IMG/VR virus record: IMGVR_UViG_2534681772_000009
Coordinates: 1 to 5,659 of that record
Reading direction: 5' to 3' (one strand)
Length of the DNA stretch: 5,659 nucleotides
Source of the DNA: a virus
Taxonomy: Monodnaviria; Loebvirae; Hofneiviricota; Faserviricetes; Tubulavirales
Shown here: in pieces, positions 777-1,514 of the stretch
Numbering within the stretch: the stretch's first letter is position 1
How the letters are laid out: the number at the start of each line of letters is the position of its first letter
Translations under genes and position numbers: made by a program
The notes under the pieces: generated by a model
The model's database searches: none
Seen by the model: the letters and a program-made list of their open reading frames with translations, nothing else
Told to the model about the DNA's origin: nothing

Positions 777-1514
777 GTATGACAGTGGCGGATGTAGTCT
801 TTGGGTGGAAGTGAACAGAAAACTATGGGAGGCTTGAGGGCGGATTTTATGGATATATATATTTAGAAAATGAAAGTCCAGTTTATCTAATGCCAGCACC
901 CGGTTTGCATAAACATTTTTTAATGAAGGCAATCTTTTTCGTTGATCCGAAACGTCGTCATCTACTGTGGTCACAATCAGGCTGAACTGATCCCCTCGGA
1001 GATTTGGTTTGATCGAATGACACTCCAAAAGCAGTAATTCACTGACACGCAATCCGTAATTTAAAAGCAATCTGCAAATCAGAAAATTACGTAGCTGGAT
1101 TTCACCAGCGGGGAAGGGATTGAGTGGGTTTTTCTTTGAAATTGAACCGGGTGTAATGATTTGGTAAAAAGCCATGACCATCTCAGCAGTCAGACTTCGA
1201 AAGCGTTTATGGGTCGTGCCATTGTTCATCTGACGAGAATGGGTAAGAGTACGGAATTCTGCCTTATGTATCGATAAACGTCCCGTTAACTGCGTGGCAA
1301 GTCGTGTAAGCTCTTTAGGCGTGCCATCTATATATCTCGGCGAGATATACGTGTTAATCAAATATCTGATAAAACGAATAACCGAATGTACATGCCTGAT
1401 ATTTGTACAACGTTGAGGCGTGGTCTGCGTAGTAGACCTTATGGTTAACGCTGGTACATATAAATGCGTATTTTCCAGATAATGAAAAAAGGCTGTAAGT
1501 TCATCAATGGCAAT
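777..1514 (-). pseudogene. Tyrosine recombinase (XerC/XerD / phage-integrase family), disrupted: C-terminal catalytic region removed by the IS2 insertion, N-terminus lacks a canonical start
   Basis: Minus-strand frame is open from 1514 to 777 and then reads through into the IS2 IRR (ORF-track 690..1361). It contains ...LRNFLICRLLLNYGLRVSELLLLECHSI..., which aligns position-for-position with box I of XerD (ALLELLYATGLRVSELVGLTMSDI), followed by RKRLPSL and FLFTSTQ in the expected places. Native sequence ends at ...RLHPPLSY just before box II and the catalytic Tyr. Upstream, IDELTAFFHYLENT resembles the start of the core-binding domain, but it is preceded by an in-frame TAG (1515-1517) and the first canonical start in frame is TTG at 1361. 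Confidence 0.6.

Follow-up and report, generated by a model that had tools for sequence, protein, structure and literature searches.

A probable GInt-type genomic island at the XerD-arm edge of dif, with its ginA-like first gene inactivated by two lesions

The chromosomal dif site is the textbook landing site of mobile elements that hijack the host recombinases XerC and XerD. Here we describe a recombinase gene fragment beside dif in a 5,659-nucleotide stretch of DNA (IMG/VR record IMGVR_UViG_2534681772_000009, assigned to the Tubulavirales; referred to as the window), where it appears as an open reading frame (ORF) on the minus strand at positions 777–1514. We are fairly confident that this ORF is the inactivated, ginA-like gene that comes first in a GInt-type genomic island abutting dif; GInts are genomic islands with three integrases, also known as the Tn6571 family (PMC5385486). 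The notable feature of this GInt variant is its target, the XerD-arm edge of Xer sites, which we did not find described. Insertion of the island is precise: it falls at the XerD arm's outer edge and leaves all 28 bp of the site intact, and this XerD-arm edge serves as the insertion target both in the chromosomal dif of many gamma-proteobacteria and in the Xer site of conjugative IncHI2A plasmids. The copy in the window is itself dead, an ordinary pseudogene with two lesions.

When ordinary Escherichia coli genomes are compared with island-bearing ones, homology is lost precisely where dif begins on its XerD side, at the first base of the site. K-12 and JCC-EE 7 align up to the last base of TTATGTTAAAT, and the alignment resumes 22.1 kb later, after TAAGTTAAAT, with the two matches overlapping by 10 bp; the far end of the JCC-EE 7 island reads ...CACTCAACATAAGTTAAAT and is followed by the K-12 flank CATGTCTGAG. 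The same pattern is found on plasmids. In plasmid pEC-14-2-9-2, an 18.4-kb island of a divergent lineage abuts AGTACATATAA-CAAAGA-TTATGTTAAAT and ends in ...CTCAACATAAGTTAAAT. Joining the plasmid flanks in silico (occupied L065 compared with empty IncHI2-type plasmids) gave a 600-nt empty site that matches at 600/600 nt, in one piece, at least 626 plasmids from Escherichia, Salmonella, Enterobacter and Klebsiella, one of which is a conjugative IncHI2A plasmid (MOBH). A second plasmid has an island beside AGTGCGTATAA-CTAGGA-TTATGTTAAAT. The central region of the IncHI2A plasmid Xer site differs from that of chromosomal dif and, because the sites differ in central region, XerC arm and flank, what is conserved in the target is its XerD arm.

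The association with dif extends across genera. A search with an alignment of GinA sequences, keeping one genome per species, yielded 56 loci, 53 of which were scanned upstream of the gene. The homologues come from Enterobacterales, Acinetobacter, Psychrobacter, Moraxella and Shewanella, with GinA identities of 31–96%. In 38 of the 53 loci, a dif-like 28-mer (0–5 mismatches to E. coli dif) lies 83–272 bp upstream of ginA, mostly at 125–178 bp, and in these loci the XerD arm is always perfect and always gene-proximal. In two more loci the site is degenerate and its XerD arm perfect, and the remaining exceptions are short contigs, gene fragments and one conserved Acinetobacter configuration. The left end abuts a lone degenerate half-site, TTATGACAATT, without an XerC arm, in several Acinetobacter species. 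Within E. coli, a second lineage (51% identity) occupies the corresponding location, following hipA-dif. Adjacency to dif reflects the target of the ginA-module family and is no accident.

In the window, the minus-strand frame from 1514 to 777 is open over 246 codons and contains the box I motif LLLNYGLRVSELLLL. It is not a chance ORF, because it is 100% identical to an intact gene of 466 amino acids (aa), annotated as ‘site-specific integrase’, in about 140 of 5,426 complete E. coli genomes (about 2.6%). The right-hand part of an IS2 element, inserted into the recombinase gene, occupies positions 1–776 on the plus strand. It holds the 3′ portion of orfB (13–765; rve, rve_3 and HTH_21 domains), matches at 100% copies annotated as ‘IS3-like element IS2 family transposase’ and has its right end, ...GGGGCAAATCCA, at 765–776, the terminal repeat ending at 776; homology to the uninterrupted recombinase gene begins at 777. 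IS2 splits the gene after codon 326 (..PPLSY|HAVYD), upstream of H362-x-x-R365, W414 and Y424. A preliminary description of the window had called this a truncation at 777. The cut at 776|777 stands, but the window begins within IS2, so that truncation and simple interruption (loss or displacement of the 3′ third of the gene, with HxxR, W and Y) are indistinguishable there.

The part of the gene adjoining IS2 comprises codons 81–326 (777–1515, minus strand; 100% identical to positions 6001–6739 of the E. coli locus L001) and retains the core-binding domain and box I with catalytic R236 and K279, without HxxR, W or Y. The second lesion is a 136-bp deletion with its junction at 1515|1516. The missing segment (L001 6740–6875) is present in L001, L003 and L005 and absent from the window and from TW10590, an enterotoxigenic E. 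coli (ETEC) whose independent assembly has only 7 differences from the window in 4.9 kb. As this independent assembly shares it, the deletion is real and not an assembly error. It takes out codons 35–80, including the family-invariant residues D36, T45, Q46, Y57, W60, F68, C69, F72 and P79, and shifts the frame; the in-frame TAG (reverse complement of 1515–1517) is a product of the deletion and spans the junction. Codons 1–34 follow at 1516–1618 (minus strand), with the native GTG start at 1616–1618 and the translation VFILTQLNINQRQRLWALMDTHTRQPLLYPLIYL, which is the N terminus of the intact protein and its homologues (MFxLxQ...). The gene remnant thereby extends over 777–1618.

These results agree with most of what had been read from the window earlier, namely the 246-codon frame, its box I, the IS2 end, the stop codon at 1515–1517, TTG at 1361 as the first in-frame start and the double inactivation of the gene. 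The earlier statement that there is no usable start is true of the frame 1514–777, but the native GTG is kept and the cause is the internal frameshifting deletion; likewise, the gene adjoins dif as described, but its real start is 145 bp from the site and not about 250 bp. Since ginA is frameshifted by the deletion and split by IS2, the window copy cannot supply GinA and, by analogy with characterized GInts, the island of the window is presumably immobile.

The gene product is a tyrosine recombinase, as had been proposed, and not an Xer protein. Pfam returned no match for the 246-aa fragment and the assignment therefore needed the intact homologue. PF00589 is found in most GinA homologues, and R236, K279, H362, R365, W414 and Y424 are invariant among 20 intact homologues with 38–89% identity, of which the window fragment keeps R236 and K279 only. 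An AlphaFold2 model of the intact protein (pLDDT 80.9) has a two-domain fold, consisting of a core-binding and a catalytic domain, and a Foldseek search with this model retrieved Cre, XerH, Tn1549 Int and XerA (E values of 1e-6 to 1e-3). Scores against the NCBIfam models of XerC and XerD are 18.8 bits (cut-off of 335) and 14.4 bits (cut-off of 330), respectively.

The ginA-like gene always comes first in a module of four genes, located at one end of an island with cargo. Where the module is intact in E. coli (L005), the four genes are co-oriented, overlap or abut, and encode tyrosine recombinases of 466 and 516 aa, a recombinase-fold protein of 788 aa and a coiled-coil protein of 144 aa. The second product conserves TGxRPxQ, PYxKQ, D[LF]RH, ILGH and the tyrosine, with R, K, R, H and Y all kept. 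Across 12 sequences, the third product conserves TGxRSxE, HIPRHN, LMGRVDIxQNxxYxH and a cysteine cluster, and its match to the Pfam Phage_integrase family is weak (E = 0.018); the fourth has weak leucine-zipper-like matches. Gene content and order of the module are shared by about 30 loci (Enterobacterales, Psychrobacter, Acinetobacter and Moraxella). Intact islands consist of a left end of about 145 bp, the module, three small genes, variable cargo and an AT-rich right end (69–79% AT in the last 150 nt). FORC_031 and JCC-EE 7 (NZ_CP101922) are strains with an intact module, and JCC-EE 7 illustrates this layout, with the order hipB-hipA-dif, the 466-aa and 516-aa integrases, the 788-aa ‘hypothetical’ protein, the 144-aa protein, three small genes, cargo and yneL′-ydeT. 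The cargo differs among L004, L005, L064 and L065. TW10590 carries a type II CBASS (cyclase, E1-E2, JAB, SAVED-HNH and exonuclease), JCC-EE 7 an additional corA together with a helicase matching models of type IV restriction enzymes, and another lineage a 2021-aa ATPase.

The ends of the island suggest how it may be inserted. In the window, the element side of attL, that is, the island left end, spans 1619–1763 (minus strand) and is followed by an intact dif, the exact 28-mer GGTGCGCATAATGTATATTATGTTAAAT, at 1764–1791 (minus strand; XerD arm at 1764–1774, central region at 1775–1780 and XerC arm at 1781–1791). The outer 7 bp of the XerD arm, GTTAAAT (1764–1770, minus strand), are present at both island ends and in the empty site and would be the crossover region. 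Islands are flanked by the direct repeats TATGTTAAAT and TAAGTTAAAT, with the form (T/A)TA(T/A)GTTAAAT, such that the outer part of the arm recurs at the far end. GTTAAAT is what attL, attR and the empty site have in common, and just inside it the repeats differ (TTAT versus ATAA), which fits a crossover within those 7 bp. Left ends of all genera have [AT][GC]TTCAT 18–19 nt after the XerD arm (28 of 29 left ends) and AATCAnnnnnTTA further in; the arrangement GTTAAAT-N15-22-[CG]TTCA occurs at the dif-proximal end of more than 40 loci. The window has the same motifs in reverse complement, with AGTTCAT at 1739–1745, 18 nt from the XerD arm, and AATCAnnnnnTTA at 1705–1717. A simple promoter scan of the left end gave no minus-strand sigma-70 match, and we therefore do not call these conserved motifs a promoter. 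At the right ends, the inverted motif TGAAC(T/C) lies 15–16 nt before ACATAAGTTAAAT on the E. coli chromosome, on an E. coli plasmid, and in Acinetobacter johnsonii and Acinetobacter lwoffii.

In a canonical Xer event, the junction falls in the central region and the far end carries a hybrid of XerC arm and central region. Neither a central-region junction nor such a hybrid was seen at the island junctions. Beyond the XerD-arm repeat, no second dif or XerC-like arm was found at the far end of the island, where the site is without the central region and the inner TTAT of the arm. The location of the junction outside the central region argues against canonical Xer catalysis. Judging from the sequences of the ends, the recombinase module of the island, and not XerCD, would synapse the joined attP form, ATGAAC(T)-N19-GTTAAAT-N18-AGTTCAT, with the XerD arm, and would exchange strands within GTTAAAT; the circular junction would then read ...CTCAACATAA-GTTAAAT-TTAGTCCGTC... 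By analogy with GInts, for which all four genes are reported to be needed for excision and integration (PMC5385486), the complete module may be required for both steps. XerD bound to its own arm might act as a helper or as a targeting landmark. On balance, we lean slightly towards the view that a GInt clade with its own three-recombinase module integrates at the outer 7 bp (GTTAAAT) of the XerD arm of any Xer site.

The assignment to GInts follows from architecture and homology. In GInts as defined by Bardaji et al. 2017 (PMC5385486), the 5′ end carries the ginABCD operon, the cargo varies, the 3′ end is AT-rich and imperfect direct repeats of 10–17 nt flank the island. The islands described here resemble them: the four co-oriented, overlapping genes lie together at one end, the cargo differs between copies, the far end is rich in AT, site specificity is high and the imperfect direct repeats are 10–11 nt in length. 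Three of the four proteins also match, position by position, those of a catalogued GInt, E. coli Sakai ECs_3512–3509 (PMC10214605, Additional file 10). GinA is 28% identical to its Sakai counterpart (hhalign probability of 99.1%), the GinC-like protein matches Sakai GinC with an hhalign probability of 96.4%, and the GinB-like protein matches Sakai GinB by blastp (E = 1e-4, against four sequences). Given the GInt architecture and the Sakai matches, we class the element as a distant island of the GInt type. It is the Sakai GInt, and not the Pseudomonas type elements, that provides this link: among the 120 proteins listed, a profile search with the 788-aa protein returned the same family only, with no direct link to Pseudomonas GInts, and the published ginC/ginD list, in the part compared (all but 275 rows), did not contain the ginA-module family. 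The described targets of GInts are an ABC-transporter gene, ssb, an O-acyltransferase gene, the RNR alpha gene and the HU gene (PMC5385486), whereas the target here is the XerD arm of Xer sites; the proteins here are also larger, and the element also occurs on conjugative plasmids.

Several observations weigh against this account of the window and of the family. The window holds a ginA fragment alone, and any ginBCD genes and cargo beyond IS2 lie outside it. At 22.6 bits, intact E. coli GinA falls short of the Pfam gathering threshold of 27.1 bits. No similarity to Sakai GinD is detectable in the GinD-like protein, and candidate R, HxxR and Y residues are retained in the GinC-like protein, whereas described GinC proteins are without part of the motif. 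Right ends with TGAAC...ACATAAGTTAAAT number only four, of which two, both from Acinetobacter, are closely related, and at L012, an Enterobacter locus, a second XerD arm occurs with no TGAAC motif. The case for mobility consists of the comparison of occupied with empty sites, and arm-bound XerD might have a helper role in island integration.

We consider it unlikely that the element belongs instead with SEs (intA-tfp-intB-srap) or Tn554 (tnpA-tnpB-tnpC), moving by copy-out/paste-in with a 6–7-bp footprint in place of the conservative excision of GInts. These elements have the same overall four-gene logic, with a multi-recombinase module and a small auxiliary protein, as well as site-specific insertion and a short shared sequence, and a carried-over footprint of the kind known from both SEs and Tn554 (PMC10214605) could account for the repeated GTTAAAT. 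They differ, however, in gene order and in the placement of catalytic residues, Tn554 being compared by its description. The second product of the module keeps R, K, R, H and Y, which Tfp is without; the E. coli proteins and four host replicons are absent from the complete tfp/srap orthologue list; and three of the module proteins match the catalogued Sakai GInt directly. Less probable again is an IMEX (integrative mobile element exploiting Xer), in which host XerCD would move the island at dif and the recombinase-like genes would have another role, such as the regulation or activation of Xer. The presence of the island at both dif and a plasmid Xer site would suit such an element, the right end has ..CAACATAA, which loosely resembles the inner part of the XerC arm, and Xer activation factors encoded by mobile elements are known (PMC6744903). 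Recognized IMEXs such as CTXphi, TLCphi and the gonococcal island likewise land at dif, leave a functional dif and can stack; however, they have no recombinase of their own and recombine in the central region through XerC and XerD, whereas the island encodes three recombinase-fold proteins with conserved catalytic residues and has its junctions at the outer edge of the XerD arm. The composition of the right end, the Acinetobacter copies that abut a lone half-site and the dependence of related GInts on their own four genes (PMC5385486) also speak against an IMEX, and with no second dif or XerC-like arm at the far end we set this explanation aside.

Two simpler explanations concern the gene itself. 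It had been suggested that the ORF might be a Xer paralogue, and a dedicated dimer-resolution recombinase acting on dif is a variant of this explanation; the position next to dif, the weak NCBIfam matches to XerA, XerC and XerD and the box I sequence GLRVSEL, which we take to be the same as in XerD, could all be cited in favour. We regard this as very improbable, as the scores are about 20-fold under the family cut-offs, the gene is sporadic in E. coli and also found on plasmids, and it sits as the first gene within a mobile four-gene module with cargo. That the gene is the integrase of the filamentous prophage in the rest of the window, which lies within 300 bp of it, is more improbable still. 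The island lies on the XerD side and the prophage on the XerC side of one intact dif, the island is found without the prophage in L003, L005 and L064, and the annotated prophage genes of L001, L002 and L004 include no integrase. Because the island occurs without the prophage, the two are independent, which upholds the earlier proposal of an integrase remnant from a second integrative element at dif. That proposal also held the second element to be the older one, a point that the window does not show, as dif is intact between the two elements and their order of arrival is not readable from it.

If the GInt-type reading is correct, these islands have a landing pad that is universal, essential and nearly invariant, formed by gamma-proteobacterial dif sites and by conjugative plasmids (the IncHI2A Xer site), and represent a way of exploiting dif other than that of IMEXs. 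An element with its own recombinases would target the edge of dif without destroying the site, both in Enterobacterales, Moraxellaceae and Alteromonadales and on conjugative resistance plasmids that are widespread, by means of a simple attachment site (XerD arm + N18 + AGTTCAT). GInts have no transfer genes, and the plasmid copies would supply their missing route of horizontal transfer. For the window alone, the meaning is modest, given an island presumably immobilized by the two ginA lesions. There is a precedent for non-Xer targeting on the XerC side, in the ISAba32 subgroup of the IS1202 family, members of which insert in one orientation beside plasmid Xer sites and chromosomal dif (Siguier et al. 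preprint, 10.1101/2022.12.17.520857). This subgroup is similarly a non-Xer mobile element located beside Xer sites, whatever the sequence of the central region, but it uses a DDE-type transposase, inserts 5–6 bp beyond the XerC arm and duplicates its target, whereas the island uses tyrosine recombinases and overlaps the outer 7 bp of the XerD arm.

The islands may also explain a hotspot of defence islands in E. coli. Hochhauser et al. 2023 (PMC10121019) report hotspot #20 (hipA-ydeT), with defence-carrying islands in 62 of 783 genomes, and name GInts as carriers of E. coli defence systems; the interval is the same as that occupied by the E. coli island. No link of this hotspot to dif or Xer, and no mention of target conservation across genera or plasmids, was found in the text read. 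Xer-site targeting by GInts was also not found in the literature searched, which included few subscription papers.

Further features of the module and cargo were noted. The second and third products have conserved C-terminal cysteine clusters (L005 21561–25474; GGC...C...VRxCYGCxYxxPF and CPxRxxCQ...C..F.LTGR), partly common to Sakai GinB, and their sequences suggest a metal-binding module. Gamma-Mobile-Trio (GmtY/Z/X) was considered and rejected for the module, which has four genes; the NCBIfam GmtY matches have E values of 0.17 and 0.003 and reach 11–17 bits against a cut-off of 340. The three small conserved genes before the variable cargo are located at L005 26111–27703, L064 15912–17505 and L065 26053–27646, and in divergent lineages they encode an opposite-strand helix-turn-helix (HTH) protein, a product of about 186 aa and an HTH protein of 98 aa. 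In L005, the cargo includes a second corA-ysgD copy (34179–35337) and, at 36883–41563, a pair consisting of a sigma-factor-like HTH protein and a DEAD/DEAH helicase, the helicase matching type IV restriction-enzyme models with E = 7.5e-52. Many ETEC genomes have the second recombinase gene truncated by IS1 (L001/L003 4225–5594), which goes together with loss of all sequence up to yneK, leaving nothing of the ydeT-yneK interval or of the island cargo.

Among the Acinetobacter loci L046–L051, L055, L058 and L038 (for example, L046 7830–8951), a truncated ginA-like gene encoding residues 9–326 and the left end abut TTATGACAATT; L046, which carries this lone half-site configuration, is plasmid pALWED1.1. 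The truncation point coincides with the codon at which IS2 is inserted in the window, probably by chance. Elements stacked at dif occur in L023 599–16040 (A. johnsonii), L039 16779–16840 (A. lwoffii) and L022 3128–3160. L023 has the true dif, another element, a hybrid Xer-like site (TGTCGCATAAC-GTAATT-TTATGTTAAAT), the GInt-type island and a further element after its right end, and in L039 a second left-end-like sequence directly follows the right end. Extra perfect XerD-arm 11-mers away from dif, without the TGAAC right-end motif, are present in L012 (15621–15631; Enterobacter wuhouensis), L011 (5780) and L018 (4026), those of L011 and L018 being located in ...CTAAACGTGCAGG-TTATGTTAAAT, 2–4 kb from dif on its XerC side. 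These 11-mers may be the ends of other dif-associated elements.

The remainder of the window (1792–5659, minus strand) is a filamentous, Zot-type prophage that abuts the XerC arm of dif. Besides Zot (3906–4931) and a secretin, it encodes a DUF2523 protein, together with small ORFs that have no Pfam match, and a megablast search with this part against a phage collection returned no match. On the XerC side, L001 and L002 have annotated genes for a replication protein II/X, a secretin and Zot. In TW10590, the prophage is present as two tandem units of 7,332 bp. Relative to TW10590, the window has a one-base deletion at position 3125, near a T-run at 3119–3125, which splits the secretin gene into ORFs 2663–3091 and 3064–3906; given the homopolymer, this could be a sequencing error or a real frameshift.

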